Positions 1-14,784 of a DNA stretch of 50,775 nt are shown here, in pieces. Below the pieces are notes generated by a model. It saw only the letters and a program-made list of their open reading frames with translations. It was not told the origin of the DNA and searched no databases. Within the stretch, counting starts at the first letter, position 1, and each line of letters starts with the position of its first letter. A program made the position numbers and the translations under genes. Where the stretch lies: positions 1 to 50,775 of the forward strand of contig JALVTI010000030.1 in assembly GCA_027035985.1 (NCBI GenBank), given 5' to 3'. This DNA is from Aquificales bacterium (lineage in GTDB: Bacteria; Aquificota; Aquificia; Aquificales; QOAS01).

Positions 1-1918
1 AATACAACCTTAGGTTTAATTCTTTTTCCGCAACCTCTTGGAGTTGCTTAAACCACTCCTCCCCAACAAAGTGTCTGAAGAGAAACCTACCCGTTTCCGA
101 GCCGGTTATCTCGTCCATTATAAAGACTATGTCCCCAATGCCGTTGGAGATAAAGCGCTTTTCCAAAATTCTCTTTAAATCTTTAGGAATTTCCCCACCG
201 AAGGTGGGGCTTTGGTATTTGTCCAAAAAGAAACTTTTTATATGGTCAAAGGTGCTTCCCCCGTCTTTGCGCTTCACAACTGCTTGGGTGGCGAAAGCGA
301 CCAGTATCTCTTTACCCTTCAGGGGTTTGTTTTCATCCTCCAAAAGGTGGGCTACCGTTTTTAACAACCTGTTTAGGACTCCCCTTTCTCCCAACCTCCG
401 TTCGGAACTGGTCGTATAGGTGACCTCCCTAACGGTGGAATACCTTTCTTCCTCCTCCGAATGGTTTCCCAATCTTTTGAGTTTTACCTTTCCGAGTTTG
501 GGAATATTCACCTCCTCGGGAAGGGAAAAGTTTTCCTCCTTTGAGAGGTAAAAGACCGTATCGGGATGCTCCGATTGGGTGTAGAAGGCAACCATGTTTC
601 TGTTTTTCTTGCACCACTTTTCTATAAGTTCGGTGTTTAAAAAAGTCCTCGGGGAGGTGTAGAGGATTAGGCTATTTTTCCCAAAGAGTTCAAAAATAGT
701 TGTTGTTTTCCCTATACCGGGAACACCCAAATTGGCAACCCAACGGGAGTTTTTCAAAACCTCTCGGAAAACCTTTTTGTGTTTCTTTCTCTTTTCCCTA
801 TTTAAGCGGTATTCCTTATCTATTCTCCAAACCTCTTTTAGGATTAGATGCTCATCGCTATTGGTCTTTAGGGGTTGAATTTCTACCTCTATCCCCTTTG
901 CGGGTGAGCTTAAGTTCATAAAAAACTTTTGGAGTTTTTCGGTGTATTCCTCCATAAAGCGGTTTCTGTTTTTATCGCCTCCACTTACGGAGGAATAGAT
1001 CTCCCTCGCTTTCCCCAAGAGGTTTAGAACTTCCCTTAGTTTCACCTTTGGGGAAAAACTTATCTGCGCAACCTTGTGGAGTGTTATACCGAATACCCTA
1101 AGCACTAAGGGAGTTTTTTCGTCGATTATCCCCTTTTGGAGGAGAAGTTTTAAATACTCCCCCGCGTAGGAGCTCGCCTGAACGAGTTTTGCAACTTCCC
1201 TATTCTTCCACTCCAAAAGTTGGAAAAATTCCCTTAACCTTTCGGGGTCTTCGGTTTTTAATTCCAACAACTTGTTTAGGAGCTCTTTAAAATTCCCTCC
1301 ACCCTTTAGGTTTATCGGTTTAAAAAGGTAACCTTGTCTAATTCCTTCACGGTCGGTGTTATAAATTTTGGTTAAACCGCTCTGGTATAGGTCGGGAGAG
1401 TTTAAACTGTCGTATCCCCCAAAAAGGTCGCTTGCGCCGTATAAACTCAAATCCGCAACCGTTATATAGTGCAATTTCCCCTTGATGGTAAAGTGCAAGA
1501 CTAAATCCGCGTGTAGGAGGGAACCCTTTTCATCTTTAACGAATTCCCCCGAAAGGTTTCCGAATTTTTCCCCAAACCTTTGAAGGAAGAAATTCCTATC
1601 GTCCTCAATAGGTATGGGTTTTCCGTAATAGAAAAACACCGCCGGATTGATATTTTTCAAATCCTCCAAAAGTTTCTTTCCAAATGTATACCCTTGGGTG
1701 AAGTAGGTAAATAAAACCCTCGAAAGGGATTGTTTGAAAAGCTCTGTAATCCTCGAACCGGAAAAGATGTTTAACGCATAACCTATAAGGGGATAATTTT
1801 CAAATTCCTTCAACCAATAGGGGTGGAAATTTAGATTTTCTTTTAAAGCCTTTAAAAGTCCGATATTGAAAAGGGACTCGTAGAGGTAGCCGAGTTTTCT
1901 CTCTTTATTAGAGAACAT
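1..1918 (-). CDS. P-loop NTPase, SF1-helicase-like, with about 390 aa of unassigned N-terminal region; partial, 3' end runs off the left edge
   Basis: Absent from the ORF track because there is no stop in the window. My translation of the minus strand from ATG 1918-1916 (MFSNKERKLGYLYESLF...) stays open to nt 1, and the frame is consistent at both ends. Walker A is LGVPGIGKTTT (nt ~698-727). Walker B-like IVFIMDEITGSE (nt ~95-130) lies about 215 residues later, a spacing typical of SF1/Upf1-like helicases with a 1B insertion. The + strand ORFs 129..419 and 700..921 and the - strand ORF 429..617 are shadow frames. Confidence 0.6.
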   Translation of the reverse strand, partial: MFSNKERKLGYLYESLFNIGLLKALKENLNFHPYWLKEFENYPLIGYALNIFSGSRITELFKQSLSRVLFTYFTQGYTFGKKLLEDLKNINPAVFFYYGKPIPIEDDRNFFLQRFGEKFGNLSGEFVKDEKGSLLHADLVLHFTIKGKLHYITVADLSLYGASDLFGGYDSLNSPDLYQSGLTKIYNTDREGIRQGYLFKPINLKGGGNFKELLNKLLELKTEDPERLREFFQLLEWKNREVAKLVQASSYAGEYLKLLLQKGIIDEKTPLVLRVFGITLHKVAQISFSPKVKLREVLNLLGKAREIYSSVSGGDKNRNRFMEEYTEKLQKFFMNLSSPAKGIEVEIQPLKTNSDEHLILKEVWRIDKEYRLNREKRKKHKKVFREVLKNSRWVANLGVPGIGKTTTIFELFGKNSLILYTSPRTFLNTELIEKWCKKNRNMVAFYTQSEHPDTVFYLSKEENFSLPEEVNIPKLGKVKLKRLGNHSEEEERYSTVREVTYTTSSERRLGERGVLNRLLKTVAHLLEDENKPLKGKEILVAFATQAVVKRKDGGSTFDHIKSFFLDKYQSPTFGGEIPKDLKRILEKRFISNGIGDIVFIMDEITGSETGRFLFRHFVGEEWFKQLQEVAEKELNLRLY

Positions 1919-1971
1919 GGATTAGTTATAGATATAGCAAAAGGAAGAAAAAATTTGAGAAACCCACAATG

Positions 1972-2271
1972 CTATTCGTTTCTATATAAGCTCGCTACAC
2001 AATGACCACAGATATTAATACCAGATAAAACTTGTAGGCTTTCAGCGACTGCCAAAGCTTCGTTTTTGGATAAATTTTCAAATGGCTTAAATATACTTCT
2101 ATTTACATAGATACCCATTTCTTGACAATTTGTTTCATTTATTGTTCCACATAATGCCCTTCCATTATTCAAAATATGAACCTCTCTTGTGTTTTCATAA
2201 AAACAAAGAGCGTATCCCATTGCCACATACCCCCCTAATGAAATTTGTTTTCCTAACGAACAATTTATCAA
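1972..2271 (-). CDS. small Cys-rich hypothetical protein, directly upstream of and co-oriented with the P-loop gene
   Basis: 99-codon ORF with six Cys, including ICGHC near the C-terminus. The ORF-track start is TTG. A better start is ATG at 2220 (MGYALCFYENT...), 9 nt after a GGGGGG Shine-Dalgarno-like run. A 53-nt gap to the next gene suggests an operon. I recognise no family. Confidence 0.35.
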   Translation of the reverse strand: MINCSLGKQISLGGYVAMGYALCFYENTREVHILNNGRALCGTINETNCQEMGIYVNRSIFKPFENLSKNEALAVAESLQVLSGINICGHCVASLYRNE

Positions 2272-2532
2272 GAAAGTTCCGTAATGTCAACACTATTTGT
2301 ATAACCTTCAAATTAACCTAATTAAGGAGTTAGGAAAGTGGTTTTTCAATGTTTCTCTACTAATTGTGGGAGCTTTAATCATTCAACCATTTATGAAAGA
2401 CTCTTTATCCAAAAAGTTAGTAGGTATAGGATTACTAAAATTTACTTAACGATTTTGTTTGTATGAACTTAGAAGGAAAGGAAAAATTTAGGGAACATCC
2501 TTGTTTCCTTTCTTCTTTATCGGAAAACATTT

Positions 2533-2889
2533 CTATAAGATGTTTCCAACTTTTACTTGAACATCAATAATATCATAATCAACTATGGGAACTAACTTCC
2601 TACCTTTTCTTTCAAGTTTCAGAAAACCCGCTTTTTCTAAAAGAATCACATCCTCGTAAATATTTTTGTAATCCCTGTTTACGATTTCCGCAAGCTGCTT
2701 AAGGGAAGAAGGTTTTTTATTTTTTATCACATCAAGTAACTTTTTCCTTTGGGGAGTTAGAATACGGTTTAATTCCTCTATAGACCCAACGGAAATATAT
2801 TCAATTTTTCCTTTTTGAGTAGCAACTGTTTCCTTTATTTCTTCCCAAAATTCGTTGAAATCTTCAACAATAACTTTTTTAACCTTCAT
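2533..2889 (-). CDS. TumA-like / HVO_A0114-family winged-HTH antitoxin
   Basis: 118 aa. The segment LTPQRKKLLDVIKNKKPSSLKQLAEIVNRDYKNIYEDVILLEKAGFLKLERKGRKLVPIV matches the MarR-like HTH pattern of antitoxins paired with DUF6516 toxins. It overlaps the upstream gene by 4 nt (ATGA), indicating coupling. Confidence 0.65.
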   Translation of the reverse strand: MKVKKVIVEDFNEFWEEIKETVATQKGKIEYISVGSIEELNRILTPQRKKLLDVIKNKKPSSLKQLAEIVNRDYKNIYEDVILLEKAGFLKLERKGRKLVPIVDYDIIDVQVKVGNIL

Positions 2890-3215
2890 ATTTCAACCTC
2901 CTTTAAAAGTTCTTTTAAATCTTTTTTGAAATCTTCCAATAGGTTATCTATGCTTTCAAATCTATAAATGTGTCTTTTTCCTTTTATATGCTTGTGGTGT
3001 CCCTCACATCTGTGGTTATCGTATCTCAAAAATTCTCCATCAAATTTTCCTGAACATTCGTCGTATAACGCAAAAACTAAAGAATATTTGTAACCTTCGG
3101 GGTAGCAATTATCTTTCCTTACTCTCCATATCTTTATTTCCAATATTCCCAGAAGTTTTCCTTTCTTGGAGAATATAGGTCTTTTAACGTGAAGTTCCAA
3201 TTCAGCATTAGGCAT
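2886..3215 (-). CDS. TumE-like (DUF6516) toxin component
   Basis: 109 aa. The His-rich core LRYDNHRCEGHHKHIKGKRHIY resembles the (Y)DN.PHH...HHKH signature of the DUF6516/TumE family. It is the first gene of a two-gene operon with the HTH protein. Confidence 0.6.
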   Translation of the reverse strand: MPNAELELHVKRPIFSKKGKLLGILEIKIWRVRKDNCYPEGYKYSLVFALYDECSGKFDGEFLRYDNHRCEGHHKHIKGKRHIYRFESIDNLLEDFKKDLKELLKEVEI

Positions 3216-3234
3216 TATGGTTTAATATACCATA
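3216..3234. promoter_or_regulatory. inverted repeat TATGGT-N7-ACCATA abutting the start codon of the TumE-like gene; possible autoregulatory operator or 5' hairpin
   Basis: Read directly: tatggt ttaatat accata, immediately 5' of ATG 3215 on the minus strand. TA operons are commonly autoregulated through palindromic operators. Confidence 0.3.
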
Positions 3235-3415
3235 AAAATTAATAAACATTTCCGCAGTGTTCTATTCGGATAACGAGAATAATTATCTGAATACCTCGTC
3301 CGCGGGTATAACTTCGGTTTTACCTTCTTTCAGTTTTTTCAAGCTCTCGGGCTAATGCTTCATCAAGGTTTATATTTAGTTTTAACCACTAAAGTGTGTA
3401 TTATTGTGTGTATTT

Positions 3416-3805
3416 TTATACTCCTACCTTTGTTTTAAACAATTCATTTAACAATTTACTTATTGTTAGTGCTATCTGTACCAATTCTTTTCTGGAGAAT
3501 TTAGGAGCTTCTAATAACTCTAGACCGGTATTTCCTACAGTGTTTCCTTTTCCTTTAACAAATCTTTTGATAAGTTCTAGGTTTTCTTCTATTTGTGGGG
3601 TAATTTCGTAACCATGTTCGGTTTTCTTAGGAATACCACCTTCCAAAGTGATAATTCCCTTCGGTTTAAGAATTGTTTCCCTGTAAGAGAGATGGATTTC
3701 TTCGGAGACTTCGCGGGAACCCAGTTTTAAATAAACCGTTCCATTATCTAGGGTTCCAACCTCTAAAGGTGCATCGGGATAAATTGCTTTAATACCTTCT
3801 GCCAA
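3416..3805 (-). CDS. hypothetical 129-aa protein downstream of an AbrB-type antitoxin; candidate unassigned toxin
   Basis: ORF with a TTG start. GGAGGA lies 13 nt upstream and AAGGAGG 20 nt upstream. I can see no PIN, MazF, RelE or Doc motifs. Its position after an AbrB/SpoVT-fold gene is typical of a toxin. Confidence 0.45.
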   Translation of the reverse strand: MAEGIKAIYPDAPLEVGTLDNGTVYLKLGSREVSEEIHLSYRETILKPKGIITLEGGIPKKTEHGYEITPQIEENLELIKRFVKGKGNTVGNTGLELLEAPKFSRKELVQIALTISKLLNELFKTKVGV

Positions 3806-3832
3806 TTCTTTAAAAAATTCCTCCGCCTCCTT

Positions 3833-4099
3833 TTAAGCTCCTCTTAATAAGTAATATTCCTCCCTGTTAAGGTCTTTCAGAGAGGTTTGAGGTAATTTTC
3901 CTATTTGCGGTTTTCTTCGGAGAATTACTTCTCCTTTGGATGGGTTTACTTCTGCAATAATTTCCCCACCATTTTTGTAGTCTATTCCCAAAGTTTCCAA
4001 AAACAACTTAGGTAGATTTATATTTCCCCGACTGTAAACTTTGAGTCGGGTTAAAGCAAATTCTTTTTCCTTTTTGGGTTTGGCTATTAACAACTTCAT
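3833..4099 (-). CDS. AbrB/SpoVT/MazE-type antitoxin-like DNA-binding protein
   Basis: Swapped-hairpin pattern RGNINLPKLFLETLGIDYKNGGEIIAEVNPSKGEVILRR. The ORF track extends to 4183, but ATG 4099 (MKLLIAKPKK...) is preceded by GAGGGG at suitable spacing, so I use 4099. Confidence 0.6.
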   Translation of the reverse strand: MKLLIAKPKKEKEFALTRLKVYSRGNINLPKLFLETLGIDYKNGGEIIAEVNPSKGEVILRRKPQIGKLPQTSLKDLNREEYYLLRGA

Positions 4100-4121
4100 T
4101 TTTATCCCCTCATTGGAATAA

Positions 4122-4478
4122 TACTCAGTAGTTTTCAGACTTTTTGACGAAAATGCGGAACATGATTTAAAGGAAGAAATCAAACAAATTTTGTTTAATG
4201 AGTGAATTTTTATTCCCTGTGAAGTAATAGTAGAACTGTCTTACCTTTTAAGGACGAGGTTAAAAAAGAGTAAACCCGAAGTGGTGGAAATTGTTTCCTG
4301 GCTATTTTTAAGGGAGAATGTGGAACTTGAACCCGAATGTCTATCCGCTTTAAGCCTTTGGAAAAACTCAACTTTGGATAAATTGGTAGATGCTCTAATA
4401 ATTGTAAAGTCCAAAAAAAGGAATTGCTTATTAGTTACCTTGGATGAGGAAATGTTTAAAGTTTATAGTGAAATGTAA
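4122..4478 (+). pseudogene. decayed PIN-domain (VapC-like) gene: no start codon and an in-frame TGA at 4203-4205
   Basis: The frame is open from 4122. It reads ...FRLFDENAEHDLKEEIKQILFNE*IFIPCEVIVELSYLL...LVDALIIVKSKKRNCLLVTLDEEMF. PIN-like acidic positions are present (FD, VxE, D-A-L-I, VTLD). There is no ATG/GTG/TTG upstream of the first acidic motif. The ORF track lists only the GTG-started tail, 4281..4478. Confidence 0.45.
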
Positions 4479-4488
4479 AAACCTAAAT

Positions 4489-5268
4489 TTAGTCCACCCC
4501 CAAACACCCCTTACACACCCTAATCTCTCTAAAGCGGAAACCTCCGTTTTCCTTCCTCTCGGGGTAGGTTATAACAGCCAATTCCTCTATAGGTTTTTCC
4601 ATTCCGCACTTCTCACAACGGAGGGTAGAAAATTTTTCCACCGCCAAGTGGTTGTTTAGAAACTTATCCATATAGGGATTCCAAATCGTTAAAAGTTCAA
4701 ACTCCGAGAGGATATCGATTAAATTGTGTTGCGCTATTAGGTTTAAGGGTTCCAAGTTTCCACTCCTTAGGTGTTCTTCCCAAAGGTTTTTAACCTCTCC
4801 GCTGTCTATGTCCCAATCGGAAAAACCGAAATAGTGGAAAAATCTCGGATGTATCAACTCACGGAGTTTGGGAGTTTTATGCCACCTCTTTAGGTCTCTT
4901 ATTTTGTAGGTTATACCCATTGCGGGTTTCATTATTTCTTTAACCCGCAATTGGATACCTAAATGGGTTCTAAGCCATTCACTCTCAAAGGGAGCGTTGT
5001 AGGCATAAAACTCCTTTTCACGTGCGAGTTTTTCTATAAACCCTTTAAATTTGGAATAAAAATCCTCCTTGCCAAGTTTTTTGGTTCTCAAAAGCACAAT
5101 TGCGGTTTTTCCGTAAACGAATCCTCCGCAAATGATTTCTCCCTTTTGCGGGTCGTAATCGGTGGTTTCGAAGTCTAAAACAACCCCTTCGAAGTTTACT
5201 TTTGGTTGCAACTCCAAAAGGATGTAATAGAGTCCATCTCCATTTAGTTTGCCGTTTACCAAAACCAT
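4489..5268 (-). CDS. RNase H-like-fold 3'-5' exonuclease (DEDD/YprB-like) with C-terminal Cys4 zinc ribbon
   Basis: 259 aa. Exo I is VVLDFETTD. Exo II-like is AYNAPFESEWL. Exo III-like is AQHNLIDIL. The C-terminus carries CEKCG...(27 aa)...CKGC. Confidence 0.65.
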   Translation of the reverse strand: MVLVNGKLNGDGLYYILLELQPKVNFEGVVLDFETTDYDPQKGEIICGGFVYGKTAIVLLRTKKLGKEDFYSKFKGFIEKLAREKEFYAYNAPFESEWLRTHLGIQLRVKEIMKPAMGITYKIRDLKRWHKTPKLRELIHPRFFHYFGFSDWDIDSGEVKNLWEEHLRSGNLEPLNLIAQHNLIDILSEFELLTIWNPYMDKFLNNHLAVEKFSTLRCEKCGMEKPIEELAVITYPERKENGGFRFREIRVCKGCLGVD

Positions 5269-8200
5269 TTGTTTTGCTAATTATTTTAATATGATTTACC
5301 AGCTTAGGGAGGAACCCCAAAGGTGTTTGACCCTAAAAGAGGAAGTTTTCAAAAAATTTATAGAACTGTTTAAAGAAAAATTGAAAAAGCAATCCTCTTT
5401 TAGGAACGGGGAAGATGTTTTCAATTTTTCCAAAGAGGTGGCGATAGAGTTCGAAAAGAGATTCCCGAAAATATCCGAAGTTTTTAACGGAAAACCCTGC
5501 GATTGTAAAAAATTCTTTGAAATTTTTACCGAAAAGCAGTTGGCGGAGATAAGAAAACTTTCAAAGGAAATCCAAATAAATGTAGAGTTAAAAAGCTTTA
5601 AAGAGTCTTTGGAGGATTATGTAAAACAGAATTTTGAACTTTTTAAAAAACGTCTAAAGGTAGAGGGATATACCGAAGATGAGATAAAAAAGGCATGGGA
5701 AGAAAATTTCAAATTTTTTGAGGGACTAATAAAGGAAGATACAACCTACTACACCCGAATAGCCTCTTTGAGGATAAAGGATAAAACGGAAAAACCCAAC
5801 GAGTCCGACCCTTACTTTTTGACTTACCTATTGGTGTTTGAATTGGAGAAAAGCTCCCGCTCGGAGGAATTTAAAAACCTAAAGGAATCCCTTTTCGGGG
5901 GAAAAATTGAGTCGGTTGAGGAAACTTTAAAAGAATTGGTCGCCCAAAAGTGGGAGAGTAATGTTGACGAATTGTTAGCAGACCTCGGTATAGTTGACGA
6001 AGATTTTGACAACAAATGGGAGGAAAAGAGGGAGGATATTCTTAAAATCGTTGAGGACCTATTCGATGCAATAGATTCCACCGTAAGGAGCAGAATAGAG
6101 GCCGAACACTTTAGGGATTTAATAGAGTTTGCCAAAGAGAGGATTGAAGACAGAAATTTATCTGAACCTTTAAAAGTAATTGAAGAAAACCTAAACCTTT
6201 TAAGGGAAATTTACGAAAACAATGCCGATTTGGGGAACATAATCGTAGAGGCTATCCCCGTAGGGTTTGAATTTTGGGACAAAATAACCGATTACGCGGT
6301 TGAGAAAGACTTTAGGCACTTCCTATACACCTACAAAATGAAAATTAACGACATTGCGGAAGGTGCAATAGATAACCATTTGTTAAAACCCAAATGGGTT
6401 AAATTGCCCGACATAAAAAACCGTGCGGATTACTTTATCGCCCAAGGGATACTTTTTAAGGAAATAGTTAGGAATTTAGACACTATAGAAAATGAAAAAG
6501 AAAAATTGGGAACCGATGCGGTTAAAAAACTTCCCTCTTACCTAAAGGGTTTTATAAAGGCACTCTTCTATTACGGGAAGGCGGATATAGAAACCATTGA
6601 GAGGTTTTATAACTACTACGAACAGGTTCAAGTTATAGTCTCCAATTGGTTGGCAAGAAGGAGTGACGAGAGAACCTTTAGCGAAACGGATAGGGAATTT
6701 TTAACCCGAATAGGGGATGAAATTGAAAGATTACTCCCACCGTTGGAGGGAAACAAAGAACGATTTGAGGAGCTTTACGGATATATAGCTCAAAACCTAA
6801 TAAAGGAATTTGTTGAAAAGGTTCTACCCTCCAACGGTAGGGAGCTTTTCGTCGCGGTGGATTTCCATTCCTTGGCGGAGGCTACAAAAAGATTCCTTTC
6901 TGATGGAGAAAGACCTTCCAAAACCCGCATTTATAGGGGTCTTTTGAAAGTCCTAACCCAAAAGGAGGAACTGGAAAACTTCGAATACATCTTTAGGGTG
7001 AAAAATGCCGTTCAAAACCACTTATTGGATTTGGATAGAGAGGTTTCCCCTAAATTGGAGAAATTGAAACCTATAAAAGACCTGAAAGGGTTTTTCACCT
7101 TAACGGCGGAACTATCTGACGAGCGGCTACCTAGTGAGAAACAATCTTTTAAATTGGGATTTATTTTAAGTTTCCTTTTGCTAACCTCACTAATAGCCTC
7201 GCGAAGCGGGGGAATTTTAGAGGGTTTTTCACTACCCCACTCCTTCAGTGATAGGGAAGACGAGATAATAAACAGATATAGAGATTTACTCTATGCACTT
7301 GTAGGGGCTTCGGTTTTTGCGATAAATTCCGACAAAGTAGCGGCGGTTCAAAACTTTAATTGGAGTAATGTATTTAAAAAAGAACCTTTTAGAAAAGATA
7401 AAAATAAAAACCTCTACAAGGCTATAAATAACCTTTTAAATACCCGTTTGTTGGTGAACAGTAAAATTAAAAACGGCTTAACCTCCCTCTATTCCAATCT
7501 ACCCTTTGAGGTTGAAGGTTTAAACCTAAGCCAAAAAGTGGCAATCTTGGCACTTTCCCACCCTACGAAGGTGGATAAAAACTTAAAAGCCGTTTTGGGG
7601 GAAGCTTACATTTTTGAACCCATCAAGGGAAAGGATTTGTTTAAAACCTCCAAAGGTGTAAGAGTTTTTAGGAAAACCTTTAGTGGTGTTTACAGCTTTA
7701 TAGAAAAAGACCAAAAAGGGGAATTCGCGGATTGCAAGACCGTTTTGAGTGATTTCCTAAAAACTTTAAAGAAACTCGGGGTGGAAAAGGTCTATTTAAT
7801 TCCACCCTTACCCATATATAGGGGTTTATCAACAAAGGAGGACTTTTTAAGGGAGCTCTATTTCTCCGACCTACTTGCGGAGGTTGGGGAGGAAATTGAA
7901 ATACCTCTAAGGTTGGTTTTCTCGAGCTTCGGAATAGTTTATACCCCCGAGCTAAGCAACTTCAAAAGGAGAATAAAGGAATTTCTGAAAAAGGAAGGTT
8001 TAATTATTAAAACGGACAAGAAAGGAGAAGAAAAGAGGGGAATAATAGCGGTAAACCTGTTTAAAAACATTGAGAAAATAACCCCGCGGAGCGGGGCTAT
8101 GCCATTTATTACCCCGAAATTTGCGATAATTCCGCTCTTTTCTATGGAGGAGGGCAAGGAGGGAAGCGTTGAAAAGACGCTATTCCACCACGCGTTTATA

Positions 8201-8533
8201 TACTCCGTTCCCAACCACCGACTCTTTGAGGGAGTCCATCCCGAAAAGTTGTTCCTCCGAGAGGAAGAAAAGAACGAATTGGCAAACCTTTTGAGTGTGG
8301 TTCATTTAATCCAATACCAAAAAGGGGAGGATATTAAAAAGACCAAAAAGGGAAATATATGGGAAAAGACCTTTAAGAGGAACCCCTTTTATGTCCTTCC
8401 CGAAAGGAGGAGTGGGGATAAGAATATTCTTGCACTTACGGAGGTGGAAATTTTCTTTAACTCCGATGTCCGTCCGAGGTTGCAAACGGTTCTAACCGCC
8501 TTTAGGTTGTGGGATGCGGTTAGAAACCCTTAG
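5249..8533 (+). CDS. very large (about 1080-1094 aa) hypothetical protein with no recognisable family
   Basis: Uninterrupted 3.3-kb ORF with protein-like composition throughout. The ORF-track start is TTG 5249, which overlaps the divergent exonuclease gene. ATG 5291 (MIYQLREEPQ...) is the first ATG. I found no Walker A, DEAD/DExH, HD, GGDD or HNH motif by eye. Confidence 0.7.
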   Translation: MPFTKTICFANYFNMIYQLREEPQRCLTLKEEVFKKFIELFKEKLKKQSSFRNGEDVFNFSKEVAIEFEKRFPKISEVFNGKPCDCKKFFEIFTEKQLAEIRKLSKEIQINVELKSFKESLEDYVKQNFELFKKRLKVEGYTEDEIKKAWEENFKFFEGLIKEDTTYYTRIASLRIKDKTEKPNESDPYFLTYLLVFELEKSSRSEEFKNLKESLFGGKIESVEETLKELVAQKWESNVDELLADLGIVDEDFDNKWEEKREDILKIVEDLFDAIDSTVRSRIEAEHFRDLIEFAKERIEDRNLSEPLKVIEENLNLLREIYENNADLGNIIVEAIPVGFEFWDKITDYAVEKDFRHFLYTYKMKINDIAEGAIDNHLLKPKWVKLPDIKNRADYFIAQGILFKEIVRNLDTIENEKEKLGTDAVKKLPSYLKGFIKALFYYGKADIETIERFYNYYEQVQVIVSNWLARRSDERTFSETDREFLTRIGDEIERLLPPLEGNKERFEELYGYIAQNLIKEFVEKVLPSNGRELFVAVDFHSLAEATKRFLSDGERPSKTRIYRGLLKVLTQKEELENFEYIFRVKNAVQNHLLDLDREVSPKLEKLKPIKDLKGFFTLTAELSDERLPSEKQSFKLGFILSFLLLTSLIASRSGGILEGFSLPHSFSDREDEIINRYRDLLYALVGASVFAINSDKVAAVQNFNWSNVFKKEPFRKDKNKNLYKAINNLLNTRLLVNSKIKNGLTSLYSNLPFEVEGLNLSQKVAILALSHPTKVDKNLKAVLGEAYIFEPIKGKDLFKTSKGVRVFRKTFSGVYSFIEKDQKGEFADCKTVLSDFLKTLKKLGVEKVYLIPPLPIYRGLSTKEDFLRELYFSDLLAEVGEEIEIPLRLVFSSFGIVYTPELSNFKRRIKEFLKKEGLIIKTDKKGEEKRGIIAVNLFKNIEKITPRSGAMPFITPKFAIIPLFSMEEGKEGSVEKTLFHHAFIYSVPNHRLFEGVHPEKLFLREEEKNELANLLSVVHLIQYQKGEDIKKTKKGNIWEKTFKRNPFYVLPERRSGDKNILALTEVEIFFNSDVRPRLQTVLTAFRLWDAVRNP

Positions 8534-8562: not shown

Positions 8563-9117
8563 ATGGGGAAGGTTTTGGTTATTTACGACTCCGAAACGGG
8601 GAACACCGAAAAAATGGCTCACCTCGTGGCGGAGGGTGCAAGGAAGTTCCCCGTGGAGGTTAGGGTTAAACATGTGAAGGATGCCACTAAAGAGGACATC
8701 CTTTGGGCGGACGGTCTGGCTGTGGGAAGTCCGACCTATTTGGGCGGTATGTCTTGGAGGCTTAAAAAGTTCTTCGACGAGATTAGCGACGAGCTTTGGG
8801 GTGAAATAGACGGGAAAATCGCCTGCGCCTTCTCCTCCTCCGGCGGGTGGGGAGGCGGCAACGAGATAGCCTGCCAAAACATACTGATGATGCTGATAAA
8901 TTACGGCTTTCTGGTTTTCGGGGTAACCGACTATGTGGGAAAGAAATTCACCCTCCACTACGGGGCTGTCGTTGCGGGAGAGCCGAGAACGGAGGAGGAA
9001 AAAAATGCCTGCGTAAGGTTGGGTGAAAGATTAGCCCAATGGGTGTTGATTTGCAAAGACTGCAAAAGGGAGTATTTGGAGAATTTGAAACCTCCCGAGA
9101 AGGACGAAGAGGATTAA
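8563..9117 (+). CDS. flavodoxin-fold NAD(P)H:quinone oxidoreductase (WrbA-like)
   Basis: N-terminal KVLVIYDSETGNTEKMA FMN-binding loop, then GSPTYLGGMS and SSSGGWGGGNE, all typical of the WrbA/flavodoxin-like family. Confidence 0.75.
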   Translation: MGKVLVIYDSETGNTEKMAHLVAEGARKFPVEVRVKHVKDATKEDILWADGLAVGSPTYLGGMSWRLKKFFDEISDELWGEIDGKIACAFSSSGGWGGGNEIACQNILMMLINYGFLVFGVTDYVGKKFTLHYGAVVAGEPRTEEEKNACVRLGERLAQWVLICKDCKREYLENLKPPEKDEED

Positions 9118-9125
9118 AAACCTTC

Positions 9126-9150
9126 CCCGCCGCTTCGCGGCGGGCTTTTT
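9126..9150 (+). terminator. rho-independent terminator after the flavodoxin-like gene; possibly bidirectional with leuA
   Basis: The stem CCCGCCG (9126-9132) pairs with CGGCGGG (9138-9144), with loop CTTCG, followed by CTTTTT. On the minus strand a T-run follows 6 nt after the stem. Confidence 0.6.
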
Positions 9151-9154
9151 AACT

Positions 9155-10723
9155 TTAAACAGTTCCCTCTCTGCTTATATTCTGTTTGGAGCGCAGATAC
9201 TCCTTTCTGGCGAGCAGGCGGTTTAGGGCGTCCACATACGCCTTTACGCTGGCTTTCACTATGTCTATATCGCTAGCGCGACCGCTCGCCTTTATCCCGT
9301 CCAGCTCTATCACGACGCGCGCCTCGGCTTGGGCGTCGGTGTTGGGAGTTAGCGCCTTTATCGAGTAGTCGACAAATTTCGGTTTAATACCGGTAGCCTT
9401 CTGTATAGCCTTTATGGCGGCATCGACGGGACCGTTTCCGGTTTCGGTCGCGGTTTTCTCCTCGCCTTTGAAGACCAACTTAACCGTGGCGGTGGGAAGT
9501 ATGTTGTTTCCGGTTTGCACCTGCAAATGTTCCAGTTTGAGATAATCCTCCCCTCCGGAGGTTCTAAATTGCTCGTAAATGAGCGCCTCGAGGTCTTCTT
9601 CGTAAACCTCCTTCTTCTGGTCGGCGAGGGCTTTGAATTTTTCGAAAAGTTTGTTTAGGGTTTCCTCGTCCACCTCGTAACCGAGCTCTTTGAGTTTCGC
9701 CTTCAGTGCGTGTCTGCCGGAGTGCTTTCCGAGGACTATCTTCGATTTGGGGAAACCAACATCTTCCGGCTTCATAATCTCGTAGGTCTCACGCTTCGCC
9801 AATACGCCGTGCTGGTGGATTCCCGACTCGTGGGCGAAGGCGTTATCCCCGACAATAGCCTTGTTGGGTTGAACGAAGGTTCCGGTAATCCTACACAGGA
9901 GTCTCGAAGTCTTATACAGCTCGGGGGTATTTACCTCGGTATAGAGTCCCTTAAAGTGGTCTTTTCTCACCTTTAGAGCCATAACGACCTCTTCGAGGGC
10001 GGCGTTTCCGGCACGTTCACCTATTCCGTTTATGGTGCACTCCACCTGGCGGGCACCCGCCAAGACCGCCATCAAAGAGTTTGCGGTTGCCAAACCCAGG
10101 TCGTCGTGGCAGTGCACCGAAATAATCGCCTTATCTATATTGGGAACATTCTCCTTTATATCCCTTATAAGGTTGTAAAACTCGTCGGGGATGGCGTAGC
10201 CGACCGTGTCGGGGATGTTTATAACCGTTGCACCCGCCTTAATAACCTCTTCGATAATCTTGTAGAGGAATTCCCTCTCGCTTCGGGTAGCGTCCTCGCA
10301 AGAGAATTCGACATCGTCGGTGAAGTTTCTCGCGTAGCTTACCGCCTTTTTAGCCCTCTCGAGCACCTCCTCGGGGCTCATCTTCAGTTTGTATTTCATG
10401 TGGATGGGAGAGGTGGCTATAAAGGTGTGTATGCGCTTTCTCTCCGCCGGTTTTAGCGCCTCCGCCGCCGCCTCTATGTCCTTTTCCAAAGCCCTTGCGA
10501 GGGAGCATATAACGGGACCTTTAACCTCTTTCGCTATTAGGTTTATAGCCTCCCAGTCGCCTTTGGATGCGGCGGCAAACCCCGCCTCTATAATATCCAC
10601 ATTCAGGCGGGCGAGCTGTTGCGCCATCTGTAGTTTCTCCTGTGTGGTCATAGAGAACCCAGGCGCTTGCTCGCCGTCGCGCAGTGTGGTATCGAAAATA
10701 TAGACTTTTTCACCCATGGTCAT
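9155..10723 (-). CDS. leuA: 2-isopropylmalate synthase
   Basis: Contains [17 protein letters not shown] and [13 protein letters not shown], plus a C-terminal LeuA regulatory domain. The start is probably ATG 10717 (MGEKV...), 7 nt after GAGAGAGG. Confidence 0.9.
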
Positions 10724-10784
10724 ACCTCTCTCAACTTTAAACGTAAAAGTATAAGTTGCACCTTTGTATGAACTCCGTTAGCTC

Positions 10785-10801
10785 TTGCAAAAAATTTGCA
10801 A
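10785..10801. promoter_or_regulatory. inverted repeat TTGCAAA-AAA-TTTGCAA in the leuA/trpE divergent intergenic region
   Basis: Read directly. It has 7-bp arms and lies about 50 bp upstream of the trpE start. Function unknown; possibly an operator or a -35 element. Confidence 0.25.
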
Positions 10802-10852
10802 TTTCGGTGTGGAAAGAAATACCGACCTCCAAAGGGTTAAGATTTTTGGCTT

Positions 10853-12352
10853 ATGTTAAACCTCTCGGCGGAGGAGTTTTTCGAACTCTCGAAGGATTAC
10901 AACGTAATTCCCCTCTACACGGAATTTATAGCCGATATGGAAAACCCCCTAACGGCGTTTTTGAAGATAAAAGACCTCGGGAGGTTTCCCTTTCTGCTCG
11001 AGAGCGTGGAGGGTGGCGAGAAGTGGGCGCGCTACTCCTTTTTGGGGTATGGCGGGAGCTTTTACGTAAAGACCTACCGCCACTATTACGAGATATACGA
11101 CCGCGGGCGGCACGAAATTGGTGAATTCGCCGACCCGCTCGACATACTCAAACCTATAGTTAAAAATTACAAACCCTATCGGGATAAAAATCTCCCCCGC
11201 TTTTGGGGTGGGTTGGTAGGTTATATCGGCTACGATGTGGTGAAGTTCTGGGAGCCGGTTCCCGACAGAAATCCCGACCCGATAGGGGCGCCCGATATTT
11301 TCCTCGTTCAGACCGACCTAATGGTGATTTTCGACAACCTAAGTTCGAAACTGATAGTCCTAAAACCGGTGGTGGTTGGGAATAGAAATCCTTTAGACCT
11401 CTACAGGGAGGCTCAAAAGGAAATCCTCCGGGTGGTGGAGAGGTTGAAAAAACCCCTACCCGAAAGGGAGTTTTTACCCGTTCCACCTAAAACCCTTGAT
11501 GCGGACTTTTCCGAGTGGAGGAGCAACTTCACCAAAGAGGGGTTTGAAAGTATAGTCAAACGGGCGAAGGAGTATATAGAGGCAGGGGACATCATTCAGG
11601 TGGTCTTGTCCCAACGTTTCCGAAAGAGGTTAAATACCTCTCCCGAACTCCTCTACAGGGCTTTGAGGTATTTAAATCCATCCCCCTACATGTTCTTTTT
11701 GAAGTTTGACGACCTCTACGTGGTGGGTGCATCTCCCGAAATCCTCGTAAGGGTGGAGGATGGGAGGATAGAAACCCGACCTATAGCGGGAACGAGACCG
11801 AGGGGAAAAACCCCCCAAGAGGATAAAGAGTTGGAGGAAAACCTCCTATCGGACGAAAAGGAGAAAGCGGAACACATAATGCTGGTAGACCTGGCGCGCA
11901 ACGATGTGGGGAGGGTGGCAAAGTATGGGTCTGTCAAAGTGGAAAACCTCATGAGGATAGAGCGCTACTCCCACGTTATGCATATTGTCTCCGACGTGGT
12001 TGGGGAGCTTCGGGAGGACAGAGACGCGCTCGACGTTATAAAGGCAACCTTCCCCGCCGGCACCGTTAGCGGAGCGCCGAAGGTTAGGGCTATGCAGATA
12101 ATAGAGGAGCTCGAAAACGAGCGGAGGGGGATATACGCCGGAGCGGTGGGCTATATCTCCTTTCAGGGAAATACCGACACCGCCATAGCTATTAGAACAG
12201 CCGTTATCAGGGGGGACGAAATATTTGTCCAAGCGGGGGCGGGAATTGTGGCGGACTCCATTCCCGAAAGGGAGTGGGAGGAGACCCGCAACAAGGCTAA
12301 AGCCCTCATTAAGGCGGTCGAGATTGCCGAAAGATTTTGGAAAAACGGATAG
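10853..12352 (+). CDS. trpE: anthranilate synthase component I
   Basis: Chorismate-binding enzyme motifs: LSQRF, IAGTRPRG, LLSDEKEKAEHIMLVDLARND, GTVSGAPKVRAMQIIEELE and GIYAGAVGY. Confidence 0.9.
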   Translation: MLNLSAEEFFELSKDYNVIPLYTEFIADMENPLTAFLKIKDLGRFPFLLESVEGGEKWARYSFLGYGGSFYVKTYRHYYEIYDRGRHEIGEFADPLDILKPIVKNYKPYRDKNLPRFWGGLVGYIGYDVVKFWEPVPDRNPDPIGAPDIFLVQTDLMVIFDNLSSKLIVLKPVVVGNRNPLDLYREAQKEILRVVERLKKPLPEREFLPVPPKTLDADFSEWRSNFTKEGFESIVKRAKEYIEAGDIIQVVLSQRFRKRLNTSPELLYRALRYLNPSPYMFFLKFDDLYVVGASPEILVRVEDGRIETRPIAGTRPRGKTPQEDKELEENLLSDEKEKAEHIMLVDLARNDVGRVAKYGSVKVENLMRIERYSHVMHIVSDVVGELREDRDALDVIKATFPAGTVSGAPKVRAMQIIEELENERRGIYAGAVGYISFQGNTDTAIAIRTAVIRGDEIFVQAGAGIVADSIPEREWEETRNKAKALIKAVEIAERFWKNG

Positions 12353-12367
12353 CCCTTCGGGGGAAAA
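12353..12367. repeat. CCCTTCGGGGGAAAA hairpin motif, copy 1 (after trpE)
   Basis: Exact 15-mer shared with 24439..24453 and 30064..30078. All three copies are intergenic and preceded by AGC(C). Confidence 0.4.
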
Positions 12368-12583
12368 CTTCCCTTTTCGGTTTTCTTCCTTTAAACCAAA
12401 ACGGGGTAGGGATTAGATAGAAGACCTACATTCGGATGGTTTTTCCAATATTCCAAGCCACGGAAGGGGAGCGAGAAAAGGATTCTCCTTTCCCATTTAT
12501 GGAATAAATAGGTGGCGAAAACCCTTTCGGAGAAAATTCAATACCCACGACCGCCACGGGGATATAAAAAGGGCTATACCACT

Positions 12584-12772
12584 TTAAGGGTCTCTTAAAA
12601 ATTCGGTAACCTCCTCGGGGGTGAGGTCGTACCAGTTGCGGTAGGCGTCGGCAACCGCGTAGAGGTATACATCCCTTAGGTTTAGGCAGTAAACCTCGTC
12701 GACCGATTTGGCGATTTCCTCCGCCGCATCCTTGGAGCAGGTGGGAACGGCAACTATTATTTTCTTGGGATT
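12584..12772 (-). pseudogene. same-frame continuation encoding the missing C-terminal 62 residues of the phosphoribosyltransferase
   Basis: I translated the same frame past the TGA: NPKKIIVAVPTCSKDAAEEIAKSVDEVYCLNLRDVYLYAVADAYRNWYDLTPEEVTEFLRDP, then TAA at 12586-12584. This is the expected C-terminal half of this PRT family. The listed ORF 12426..12776 is in the wrong frame. Confidence 0.6.
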
Positions 12773-13261
12773 TCATTTCTTGAGATATTCAATGGCGGCG
12801 CGGAGGGTATAGCCGGAAGCCAATCCGTCGTCGACCACAATAACAGTTTTTCCGCTTATATCGGGAAAGGGTTTATTTCCCCTAAAGAGGGTGTTCCTCT
12901 CCAAAAGGGTTTGCCGGGTCTTTTGAATTTGGCGCTCTATATCCTCTTCCGTCAAACCCGCCGAGCGGATTAGTTCCTCGTTTAAAACAACATCCCCGTC
13001 AAGGTTCATCGCGCCGAAGCCGGCTTCGGTATTCCAGGGAAGTTGAATCTTTCTGACGATTAGAAGCTCAAGGGATGCACCGAGTGCTTTTGCTATCTCC
13101 TTGGCTACCGGAACGCCTCCCGATGGTATAGCCAACACCAAGAGGTCTTTATCCTTTAAATACCTCTTTAGGAGCTCGCCCAACTTCTTACCCGCATCGG
13201 TGCGGTCTTCAAAAACGAAGAACTTGTTTAGGAGCTCGGGAAGAAAGATAAGTCTCCCCAT
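12773..13261 (-). CDS. phosphoribosyltransferase-family protein, N-terminal 162 codons ending at an in-frame TGA
   Basis: PRPP-binding loop KTVIVVDDGLASGYT. The ORF stops at TGA 12775-12773, in the middle of the expected domain. Confidence 0.7.
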   Translation of the reverse strand: MGRLIFLPELLNKFFVFEDRTDAGKKLGELLKRYLKDKDLLVLAIPSGGVPVAKEIAKALGASLELLIVRKIQLPWNTEAGFGAMNLDGDVVLNEELIRSAGLTEEDIERQIQKTRQTLLERNTLFRGNKPFPDISGKTVIVVDDGLASGYTLRAAIEYLKK

Positions 13262-13293
13262 AAGGGGGAAATTAGAAAGGAAAGGCGGAAAAA

Positions 13294-14667
13294 TTAGGCT
13301 TCCTTTCTCCTGGCGTTGAGATACATGAGCAGTAAGGAAATCAGGATTGCAACACCGGCGAGAACAACGTAAACGATGAAACCTTTGGCGTAACCGGCTT
13401 TTCCGTAAATATCGACAAACTTACCGAGTATGGGGGGAACCACGAAACCGCCGAAAGCTCCCAAACCGCCAACCCATCCCGCGGCGCCACCGGTTGCGTG
13501 GGGGACGTATTTGGGAACGAGCTTGAATACCGCACCGTTAGCCATTCCCATACCAATACCCATAAGGACTTCTCCCGTTAGGGCTATGGCAAAGGAGGAG
13601 GAGAACATCAGTATCAGGGCGCCTATTAGGGTTATGGAGTAGCTGACCAAAGCCATCAGCTCGCCGCCAAACTTGTCGCTGAGAAAACCGCCGAGAATTC
13701 TGATGACCGAAGCCAGTAAGGAAAAGCCGAAAGCCATTAGCAGACCCGCTTCGGTAACGGGGAGGTTGTAGCTGCTAACCCAGAAGACTATAAACCAACC
13801 GGTTAGTGCCAAAAATCCACCGAAGGAAACGAAGTAAAGATATACCAACGCCCAGGTAAATTTCTCTTTAGCAGAGATGATTAGCGATTGCACCAGGCTA
13901 CCGGTGGGAAAGAGCTCTTGTCCTAAAGCCCTGGCTATCTTTTTAGCCGTTTCGGGGTCGAAGCCCTTCTCTATTAGCTGGAAGTAGTAGGCATCCCTCG
14001 CGAAGAGGAAATAGATAATCGTTCCTATCAGTAGGAATAGGAACCATATGAAGTAGGACATGGGGAGTCCCAACGCCTTTAGCGCAAAGGGCAGAACCAT
14101 ACCGAACAGACCGGGTGCCAGGTTACCGACACCGGCGTAAACGCCAAGAGCCGTTCCCTGGTCCTTTTGGGAGAACCAATAGGAGGTTTGGGCTATTCCG
14201 ACGGAAAAGGTAGCTATACCGCAACCGCTTAGGAAACCGAAGAGTAGGATTAACCAGTACATCCACGGTTCGAGGTTGGGATAAAACGCGAACAGCATTG
14301 CCGAAAGTCCCGCCATTCCTATAACCGAAAGCCAAAGGAGCGTCAGCATCGGCTTTCTACCGCCCACCTTGTCGACCCAGGCGGCAAAGGGTATTCGGAG
14401 CAGCGAACCGGTGAGGTTCGGCGCGGCGACCAGCAGTCCCAATAGAAATCCGGACAACCCTAGGATATGTTTGAGATTTTTGGCGACCGGTCCATAGAGC
14501 GAAACCGCCGCAAAACCGATGAAGAAGCCCCAGGTTGCCATTACCAGACCCGTCAAGGGGTCTCCCTTTAACCCCAACTTTTTGAGGATGGTGTCCTTTT
14601 CAATTTCTCCCTTTTTAAGGGCTTGAAGAAGCTTTTCGAGTTCCTCTCGATTTACAGAGGACATCAC
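13294..14667 (-). CDS. narK: MFS nitrate/nitrite transporter (NarK/NNP family)
   Basis: About 12 predicted TM segments. Gly-rich NNP-like motifs GVYAGVGNLAPGLFG and GGAAGWVGGLGAFGGF. Located next to narGHJI. About 40 aa of hydrophilic N-terminal extension. Confidence 0.8.
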   Translation of the reverse strand: MMSSVNREELEKLLQALKKGEIEKDTILKKLGLKGDPLTGLVMATWGFFIGFAAVSLYGPVAKNLKHILGLSGFLLGLLVAAPNLTGSLLRIPFAAWVDKVGGRKPMLTLLWLSVIGMAGLSAMLFAFYPNLEPWMYWLILLFGFLSGCGIATFSVGIAQTSYWFSQKDQGTALGVYAGVGNLAPGLFGMVLPFALKALGLPMSYFIWFLFLLIGTIIYFLFARDAYYFQLIEKGFDPETAKKIARALGQELFPTGSLVQSLIISAKEKFTWALVYLYFVSFGGFLALTGWFIVFWVSSYNLPVTEAGLLMAFGFSLLASVIRILGGFLSDKFGGELMALVSYSITLIGALILMFSSSFAIALTGEVLMGIGMGMANGAVFKLVPKYVPHATGGAAGWVGGLGAFGGFVVPPILGKFVDIYGKAGYAKGFIVYVVLAGVAILISLLLMYLNARRKEA

Positions 14668-14784
14668 TCCACCTCCCTAATTTTGTGAAGGTAAATATAA
14701 ACTTTAACCCCAAATGATGCTTATAAGCAAAGATAAAATCTACTTGTCCAAAGTGTATTAAAAGGTTGACAATAGTGAATTGTT

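Follow-up and report, generated by a model that had tools for sequence, protein, structure and literature searches.

A helicase gene at the edge of an Aquificales contig belongs to a rare superfamily 2 family with a candidate nuclease domain and a large companion protein

Which enzyme is encoded by the gene that runs off the left edge of an Aquificales contig, and which of the surrounding genes belong with it? The contig (JALVTI010000030.1, GenBank assembly GCA_027035985.1) was analysed as one stretch of 50,775 nucleotides (nt), here called the window. A first-pass annotation, made from the letters of this DNA, had proposed that the window begins with a truncated minus-strand P-loop helicase gene missed by the open reading frame (ORF) track. 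Re-translation confirmed this: the minus-strand frame from position 1918 to position 1 is stop-free over 639 codons, a length whose chance probability, calculated from the local base composition, is about 3e-19. The gene is absent from the mechanical ORF list because it crosses the window edge. We propose that its product joins a derived PD-(D/E)xK-like nuclease domain to a superfamily 2 (SF2) helicase and acts as the effector of an unnamed conserved two-gene module, most likely one of DNA-targeting defence, a proposal that we hold with moderate confidence. The parts of the gene that lie in the window are the following.

1-1918, minus strand: first 639 codons of the putative nuclease-helicase; an open frame with 94% and 86% identity to the N-terminal 639 residues of the ORFs at loci L004 and L002.
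743-1918, minus strand: N-terminal domain, residues 1-392, a candidate derived PD-(D/E)xK nuclease (AlphaFold2 model, conserved residues, weak fold neighbours).
1-742, minus strand: RecA1 half of the SF2 core (motif positions, family-wide invariance, SF2 fold matches).

The fragment corresponds to the 5' 55% of the gene, i.e., to the first 639 codons of a protein of about 1161 residues. Both nucleotide-binding motifs that had been reported for it are present: Walker A, or motif I (GVPGIGKTTT), at residues 398-407 (window 727-698), and Walker B (IVFIMDEITGSE), which includes motif II (DEITG), at residues 597-608 (window 130-95). Their spacing, given earlier as about 215 residues, was measured at about 200. 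Motif Ia (SPR) lies at window 655-647, and an insertion of about 190 residues in RecA1 separates motifs I and II. As judged from full-length orthologues, what lies beyond the left edge is RecA2 (Helicase_C) and a C-terminal region of about 300 residues.

The fragment had no match in Pfam, PADLOC, NCBIfam, PHROGs or PDB sequences, and a word-indexed homology search returned one relative only, a truncated protein of 630 residues. This copy (P0001, L001:913-2805) is 70% identical, ends right after Walker B and has unrelated surroundings; either the decay of a former gene or an assembly join may explain it. The full protein, which the first-pass annotation had set as the next goal, was obtained by a scan of GTDB genomes through two orthologues: L004:10001-13486 (1161 residues, 94% identity), on an 80-kb Aquificales contig, and L002:1175-4663 (1162 residues, 86% identity), on the contig of a second metagenome-assembled genome (MAG). 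Full-length orthologues span 1161-1163 residues. Among 1.84 billion representative proteins, an exhaustive HMMER search yielded just 37 relatives, mostly of 1150-1310 residues, and a family profile then added 25 proteins from Aquificota and Cyanobacteria as well as unnamed metagenome proteins, one clade of which was traced later to Methylobacter.

An SF2 helicase is defined by motifs I, Ia, II, III, V and VI spread over two RecA-like domains, the second of which is Helicase_C. In the full-length orthologue, Helicase_C (PF00271) was matched at residues 729-832 with 28.6 bits against a gathering cut-off of 23.5. Among 66 distinct full-length members, which cover at least three phyla, motifs I (GxPGIGKT), Ia (SPR), II (DExTG), III (DAS), V (TSSASRGL) and VI (QxxxRGR) were invariant or nearly so. 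Moreover, we modelled the full-length member P0052 (98% identical to the L004 orthologue and 93% to the window fragment) with AlphaFold2 (predicted local distance difference test score, pLDDT, 79; predicted template modelling score, pTM, 0.67), and a Foldseek comparison of this model with the PDB returned generic SF2 helicases only among the 50 matches listed (best E 7.6e-9, template modelling (TM) score at most 0.45), including Brr2, UvrB, Mtr4, RecQ5, Prp22 and, at rank 50, MrfA. The family profile, compared with PDB sequences, gave generic P-loop or Helicase_C matches only. Because of the Helicase_C match, motifs III, V and VI and the SF2 fold matches of the full-length orthologues, the window gene is assigned to SF2, with no close solved relative and with the RecA1 half alone inside the window. 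The architecture of the whole protein is thus a nuclease-like region (residues 1-390), an SF2 core with a large RecA1 insertion (about 395-850) and a C-terminal region of about 300 residues.

A search of the gene neighbourhood had been proposed with the N-terminal domain as query; run with the family profile, it revealed a recurrent gene for a protein of about 1000 residues upstream of the helicase. We fetched 79 metagenome loci with this profile and called their genes. With few exceptions, a co-oriented gene for a protein of about 1000-1080 residues precedes the helicase gene. Loci whose upstream DNA reached 3.3 kb or more, 61 in number, were taken as informative. This partner was present in 56 of the 61 (adjacent and co-oriented in 46, elsewhere in the locus in 10) and missing from 5; the 10 non-adjacent partners are separated from the helicase gene by inserted genes or are divergent, as in Aquificae. 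The gaps between adjacent partner and helicase genes range from -35 to +251 nt, with many overlaps of 4 nt or 1 nt, and the two genes are usually translationally coupled. Additionally, a metagenome protein of 2028 residues (P0028) is a natural fusion, matched by the partner profile at residues 1-990 and by the helicase profile at residues 1024-1938. The partner family (about 1000-1090 residues, no recognisable domain) had no match in Pfam, NCBIfam, PADLOC or the PDB, and we regard it as an obligate companion of the helicase-nuclease. One metagenome contig carries two partner and helicase pairs in tandem (L059:1473-13661; 1009 and 1208 residues, then 1012 and at least 827 residues).

In the window, the corresponding gene is a giant ORF on the opposite strand.

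5291-8533, plus strand: giant ORF of about 1080 residues, the Aquificae form of the partner (profile-profile match, shared motifs); its mechanical start is a TTG at 5249.

The conserved start of the giant ORF is M15 of the mechanical ORF. Its product had no match in Pfam, NCBIfam, PADLOC, PHROGs or the PDB, and BLASTP did not match it to the cyanobacterial partners. A comparison by hhalign with the partner family gave local probabilities of 84.5-91.6% (E 7e-6 to 8e-7) and a global probability of 97.3%, and three motifs proved to be shared in collinear order: KIKNGLTSLYSNLP in the giant ORF versus YKxxNaLSSLYSxLP in the partner, RKTFSG versus KTFS, and LSVVHLIQYQK versus LTLFHFSRYEK. Since profiles and collinear motifs agree, we identify the giant ORF, by these comparisons, as the Aquificae form of the partner. 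It counts against this identification that the homology lies mainly in the C-terminal 400 or so residues (85-92% probability).

The N-terminal region of about 390 residues could not be assigned in the first-pass annotation, and by sequence it indeed resisted assignment: it had no match in any sequence library (Pfam, NCBIfam, PADLOC, PHROGs, PDB sequences), and its own profile, compared with PDB sequences, was likewise without a match. We therefore turn to fold and conservation. An AlphaFold2 model of window residues 1-392 was confident, with a pLDDT of 84.4 and a pTM of 0.79. PD-(D/E)xK nucleases have an alpha-beta-beta-beta-alpha-beta core with an Asp at the start of strand 2 and (D/E)xK on strand 3, to which RecB- and Cas4-like members add a QxxxY motif. 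The predicted layout comprises, in order, a helix, a strand and hairpin strands bearing D138 and D156-x-S158, with E14 on helix 1; D138 immediately precedes the first strand of the beta-hairpin and D156-x-S158 lies near the end of the second, 18 residues apart, and K244-x2-Q247-x3-Y251 lies on a later long helix. These residues (E14, D138, D156, S158, K244, Q247 and Y251 in the window) are E15, D139, D/E157, S159, K245, Q248 and Y252 in the numbering of the family. Among the 66 distinct members, E15 was conserved in 62 of 62 aligned, D139 in 66, D/E157 in 65 and S159 in 62, and K245, Q248, Y252, Y309 and H381 were each conserved in all 66. The modelled layout thus resembles the PD...(D/E)xK arrangement and QxxxY helix of RecB/Cas4-type nucleases, but with Ser in the place of Lys and an invariant Lys supplied from the helix.

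The fold comparisons pointed in the same direction. The top Foldseek matches of the N-terminal model in the PDB, though weak (best E 0.96), were Cas4 SSO0001 (three chains) and the Hantaan cap-snatching endonuclease, and the top 20 in BFVD (best E 0.022) included four herpesvirus UL24 proteins, a Cas4-family exonuclease, four proteins named 'PD-(D/E)XK' and one named 'exonuclease'. The earlier statement that this region holds no PD-(D/E)xK motif is therefore probably wrong, given the invariant E15, D139, (D/E)157 and K245-x2-Q248-x3-Y252 and these fold neighbours. On the model, the N-terminal domain is probably a deeply diverged PD-(D/E)xK nuclease domain.

Three points weigh against this assignment. 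Of the 66 members, 62 have a serine where (D/E)xK has its canonical lysine; a helical insertion of about 90 residues separates the (D/E)xS motif from KxxQxxxY; and the fold matches are individually non-significant (E 0.02 to 4, TM score at most 0.3), so that the nuclease reading draws on motif logic together with matches none of which would suffice by itself. The domain could instead be a sensor or protein-interaction domain built on a degenerate restriction-endonuclease-like scaffold, and the helicase only a translocase or remodeller, with DNA cleaved in trans by the exonuclease (Aquificae), by an HNH endonuclease (Acinetobacter) or by the partner. The serine would fit this account, as would the separate nuclease genes that travel with the pair in two clades and the fact that no nuclease was matched significantly in fold or sequence; moreover, defence helicases often carry inactivated nuclease domains (10.1101/2025.09.15.676423). 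However, the 66 members, from at least three phyla, keep six polar residues with few or no exceptions where catalytic residues would be expected, a pattern typical of an active rather than a decayed site, and most loci have no separate nuclease gene. We consider the non-nuclease account unlikely, with a real chance of being right, and retain the reading of the domain as a diverged nuclease.

A further nuclease gene lies in the window next to the giant ORF.

4489-5268, minus strand: YprB/MrfB-type DEDDh 3'-5' exonuclease of 259 residues (PF13482, conserved catalytic residues).

DEDDh exonucleases have an RNase H-like fold with the motifs ExoI (DxE), ExoII (D/E) and ExoIII (H-x4-D) and fall into Pfam family PF13482. 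The window protein was matched by PF13482 (RNase_H_2) with 37.2 bits against a cut-off of 22, and three orthologues share its residues D32, E34, E95, H181 and D185; its JGI name is 'YprB'. Judged by sequence, the gene is a DEDDh exonuclease of the YprB/MrfB-like type. At its C-terminus C218, C221, C252 and C255 are also conserved (CxxC-x30-CxxC), and this tail is probably a zinc ribbon. The exonuclease gene abuts or overlaps the helicase start in L010, L096 and L097. Among the loci fetched it was confined to the Aquificae clade, and we regard it as an Aquificae-specific third gene of the module. The order giant ORF (minus), exonuclease (plus), helicase (plus) is common to L004, L010, L095, L096 and L097, which with the window makes six Aquificae loci. 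Thus, the first-pass grouping of helicase, exonuclease and giant ORF as one set was borne out, both by the recurrence of the three genes in these six loci and by the helicase and partner pair at the informative loci and in the fusion. In every Aquificae locus the divergent start codons of the exonuclease gene and the giant ORF lie about 22-27 nt apart (5268-5291 in the window; also L010, L096 and L097), and therefore both promoters must lie within the opposite coding region. On the Acinetobacter piscicola plasmid pYH12207-1 (L090:13005-15011), a gene for an HNH endonuclease, and then one for a WYL regulator, directly follow the helicase gene; the HNH region matches Cas9/IscB-type models, which suggests that different clades have alternative accessory nucleases.

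How does this module compare with known systems? PADLOC models (Druantia, Hachiman, DISARM, Cas3, Nhi, Mokosh and others), run on six family members and three partners, gave no match. Cas3 is an N-terminal nuclease fused to an SF2 helicase and a C-terminal domain, and it relies on a separate large recognition component. The module described here has a similar plan, with a candidate N-terminal nuclease, an SF2 helicase, a C-terminal region and a separate large component; however, the nuclease of Cas3 is an HD domain, and no HD domain is present here. The cas3 models did not match, Cas3 was not among the 50 fold matches listed, and no cas gene was found adjoining the module, CRISPR arrays not having been searched for. 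Nhi joins an N-terminal nuclease to a helicase, of superfamily 1 (SF1), in one polypeptide, and DinG carries an iron-sulphur cluster. EndoDinG is described as a DinG with an N-terminal PD-(D/E)XK domain, DinG being an XPD-family SF2 helicase (PMC13650095). The order proposed for the enzyme studied here, a PD-(D/E)xK-type nuclease ahead of a helicase on a single polypeptide, is also that of EndoDinG and Nhi, but neither is matched by the helicase family and neither has a partner of 1000 residues.

Druantia III, which acts directly on DNA (10.64898/2026.05.12.722862; 10.1101/2025.09.15.676423), is similar in the sizes and order of its two genes, DruH and DruE, a large partner upstream of a large SF2 helicase with a fused nuclease. 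In contrast, DruE is a YprA-family helicase with DUF1998 and a C-terminal phospholipase D-type (PLD) nuclease, whereas the module here lacks DUF1998 and its candidate nuclease is N-terminal and PD-(D/E)xK-like; the DruE and DruH models of PADLOC matched neither helicase nor partner. Hachiman is a DNA-targeting defence complex of a PD-(D/E)xK-type nuclease, HamA (DUF1837), and an SF2 helicase, HamB (PMC11914072), and HamB was assigned to the Ski2-like helicases (PMC12839542). The same combination of nuclease and helicase types is proposed here, and the Ski2-like Brr2 and Mtr4 are among the best fold matches; the difference is that here nuclease and helicase reside in one polypeptide and are accompanied by the obligate partner. 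The HamA and HamB models of PADLOC had no match at E 0.1 or below for helicase or partner, and Hachiman chains were not among the 50 matches listed in either PDB fold search. To the extent that sequence comparison can tell, the module resembles the nuclease-helicase machines Druantia III, Hachiman and Cas3, yet it belongs to none of them.

The genomic setting is consistent with mobility. Positions 1-8500 of the window have a GC content of 31-43%, compared with about 50% in the flank at 9000-16000 (flavodoxin, leuA, trpE), and this low-GC island fits horizontal acquisition. Homologues occur on 11 plasmids, 6 of them conjugative; among the 11 are a Cupriavidus megaplasmid, two plasmids of Acinetobacter and plasmid C of Trichormus variabilis ATCC 29413, whose pair has the accessions WP_011316674 and WP_011316675. 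A type 1 BREX system lies immediately downstream of the pair, with GmrSD close by, on contigs where the partner clusters with a protein of a Methylobacter MAG, and elsewhere the pair lies between HipA/Fic and DUF4011/HigBA genes. The module behaves as horizontally mobile accessory DNA. A phage origin was considered and rejected, as no relative was found in IMG/VR or among GenBank phages.

Because of this mobility, the rarity of the family, the low-GC island, the plasmid and defence or toxin-antitoxin (TA) neighbourhoods and the architectural analogy to Druantia III, Hachiman and Cas3, the role of the module is most likely defence against foreign DNA, as far as analogy can be a guide. The partner would bind the helicase-nuclease and either sense a substrate or license the enzyme; once engaged, the helicase would translocate and unwind DNA with ATP while the N-terminal nuclease cuts; and in Aquificae the DEDDh 3'-5' exonuclease, encoded immediately upstream, would degrade the displaced 3' strand. 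A more specific version, which we offer tentatively and at somewhat less than even confidence, is that the pair is a new defence system in which a domainless sensor of about 1000 residues controls a single-chain nuclease-helicase with a new diverged branch of PD-(D/E)xK domains, and that the thermophile (Aquificae) variant recruited the 3'-5' exonuclease. No paper on these proteins turned up when the literature was searched under their accessions (WP_011316675 and others).

The main rival to a defence role is DNA repair or genome maintenance by a helicase-exonuclease analogous to MrfA and MrfB/YprB of B. subtilis, which would unwind DNA at lesions or stalled forks for resection by the exonuclease and the N-terminal nuclease. 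MrfA and MrfB are an established repair pair of helicase and exonuclease (PMC11194089, PMC7797055), and the Aquificae exonuclease belongs to the Pfam family of MrfB, PF13482, keeps the DEDDh residues, is encoded beside an SF2 helicase (PMC11194089) and is translationally coupled to it in Aquificae; UvrB is, moreover, among the best fold matches. Several features of the neighbourhoods also weigh against defence and suit repair. The 147 neighbouring proteins scanned were mostly products of housekeeping or variable genes rather than of defence genes, so that the defence signal was modest, and many of the PADLOC matches among them were to Uma2- or ABC-type families of doubtful meaning. In Aquificae the module is stably placed between biosynthetic genes, and one Aquificae homologue (L007:10001-13561, 45% identity) stands by itself, flanked by rpsQ and a tRNA-synthetase gene; neither a partner nor an exonuclease gene lies within 10 kb of it.

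However, the two systems differ in several respects. The YprA/MrfA family, which includes helicases of DISARM, Dpd, Druantia and ARMADA, is characterised by an SF2 core followed by an OB-CON-DUF1998 array, DUF1998 being the four-Cys MZB domain (10.1101/2025.09.15.676423). Membership in that family was considered on account of the YprB-like exonuclease and rejected: the full-length proteins have neither a DUF1998 Pfam match nor a C-terminal Cys cluster, and the DrmA, DruE and Dpd models of PADLOC did not match. The helicase thus lacks the domain that defines MrfA/YprA. The gene order is reversed, with the exonuclease gene first; the exonuclease ends in a zinc-ribbon-like CxxC...CxxC; its JGI name mentions a tetratricopeptide repeat (TPR) region, which MrfB has; it was not found outside Aquificae; and the obligate partner has no counterpart in MrfAB. 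Additionally, repair genes are not usually so extremely rare and patchy as this family is, and the low-GC island, the plasmids and the defence or TA contexts do not suggest a repair function. A role in repair is, in our estimation, rather unlikely, and defence remains the role that we prefer.

An improbable alternative is that the module benefits the mobile elements on which it resides, in the maintenance of plasmids or of integrative and conjugative elements (ICEs), in the exclusion of competitors or in DNA processing, and not in anti-phage immunity of the host. The 11 plasmid records and their 6 conjugative members, the integrases, transposases and TA genes found nearby and the lack of homologues in the phage genomes of IMG/VR and GenBank could be read in this way. 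Most loci, however, are chromosomal with no mobility genes nearby, the Aquificae copies occupy a fixed chromosomal site, and competition between elements is in any case mechanistically equal to defence.

It is very improbable that the gene encodes an SF1 (AAA_11/AAA_12, RecD-like) or STAND (signal transduction ATPases with numerous domains) P-loop protein with further partners beyond the left edge: the GxPGIGKT Walker A does resemble SF1 and STAND P-loops, the family profile has weak matches, over the P-loop region only, to SMUBP-2 (E 0.036), NRC1/NRC2a and Dna2 (E 0.036-0.6 for the SMUBP-2/Dna2 range), and some cyanobacterial members have precomputed matches to AAA_22 (PF13401) and PF20720, but the second half is Helicase_C (SF2 RecA2) with SF2 motifs V and VI, all fold matches are SF2, and on orthologous contigs the helicase gene is followed at its 3' end by dapB or a prismane gene. 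An SF1 protein would have SF1 1A and 2A domains and motifs with Pfam matches to AAA_11, AAA_12, AAA_30 or UvrD; no such match was found, and SF1 was rejected. A STAND NTPase would have an NB-ARC or NACHT P-loop, helical and winged-helix domains and sensor repeats without a second RecA domain, and it was ruled out by that second domain and by the lack of an NB-ARC match. The SF1- or STAND-like identity given in the first-pass annotation is thus replaced by SF2, and the partners that it had expected past the left edge do not exist on the orthologous contigs.

What, then, are the small genes that separate the exonuclease from the helicase in the window? From the left edge, the order of genes is helicase (minus), mini-ORF, HVO_A0114 and TumE TA pair, two ORFs with no match, RNase_H_2 exonuclease (minus), giant ORF (plus), flavodoxin, leuA and trpE. 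The features between helicase and exonuclease are as follows.

1972-2220, minus strand: Cys-rich mini-ORF, 82 residues from the ATG at 2220 (1972-2271, 99 residues, from a TTG); called as an 82-residue gene on the independent contig L094.
2262-2290, minus strand: best sigma-70-like promoter match, immediately ahead of the mini-ORF, TTGACA-17-TAAATT with an upstream TG (10 of 12 matches, best of 8 sites).
2533-3215, minus strand: TA pair of TumE toxin (2886-3215) and HVO_A0114 winged helix-turn-helix protein (2533-2889), with Pfam E-values of 1.6e-10 and 1.6e-23, respectively.
3416-4183, minus strand: two small ORFs with no match (3416-3805 and 3833-4183), seen only with the TA pair, on L094.

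The mini-ORF, described earlier as a co-oriented ORF of 82-99 residues lying 53 nt upstream, was confirmed: it has an ATG at 2220 behind a GGGGGG Shine-Dalgarno sequence, and 53 nt separate its stop from the ATG of the helicase gene on the same strand. It is an accessory gene, probably co-transcribed with the helicase gene. Its six Cys residues hold for the 99-residue form but not for the 82-residue form, which has five (positions 6, 24, 32, 71 and 74). One orthologue, in L004, is 60% identical and keeps all five. Among the loci fetched (97 in all) no mini-ORF was found beyond the window, L094 and L004, none was found in plasmid and phage collections, and there was no family match in Pfam, PADLOC, NCBIfam, PHROGs or the PDB; being restricted to these three loci, it was rejected as a conserved partner. 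The total number of promoter sites was not above the expectation from shuffled sequence, and the TTGACA-17-TAAATT site is a lead only. ORFs 3416-3805 and 3833-4183 had no match in the same five collections.

The TA block of the window, i.e., the TA pair and these two ORFs, also occurs on L094, and the TA pair is absent from L004, L010, L096 and L097. Between the exonuclease and helicase genes, the window and L094 hold the TA block and the mini-ORF, L004 holds a gene for 273 residues and the mini-ORF, L095 holds a frameshifted copy of the 273-residue gene, and the junction is empty in L010, L096 and L097. The 273-residue gene (L004:8150-8971) has no database match; its frameshifted copy (L095:1456-2276) is split into 60 and 197 residues. 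Since relatives hold other inserts or none, the junction is an insertion hot spot, and since its content varies in this way, the mini-ORF and the TA pair are later, lineage-specific insertions outside the core module. The earlier view that TA modules flank the gene set has to be corrected accordingly: the TA pair sits inside it, between two genes that abut directly in relatives. In the cyanobacterial loci L067 and L088, three genes on the opposite strand lie between partner and helicase.

If the role of the module is defence (or repair), the unnamed family would join the helicase-nuclease immune machines represented by Cas3, Hachiman, Druantia and DISARM. It adds two new protein families that Pfam, NCBIfam, PADLOC and solved structures all fail to cover. 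It also offers a lesson for annotation, as a gene at a contig edge was misread as SF1 or STAND because its diagnostic half lay off the window. Homologues exist in culturable hosts, on plasmid C of Trichormus variabilis ATCC 29413 and on Acinetobacter plasmids, and the thermostable Aquificae versions would be suited to biochemistry and cryo-electron microscopy.

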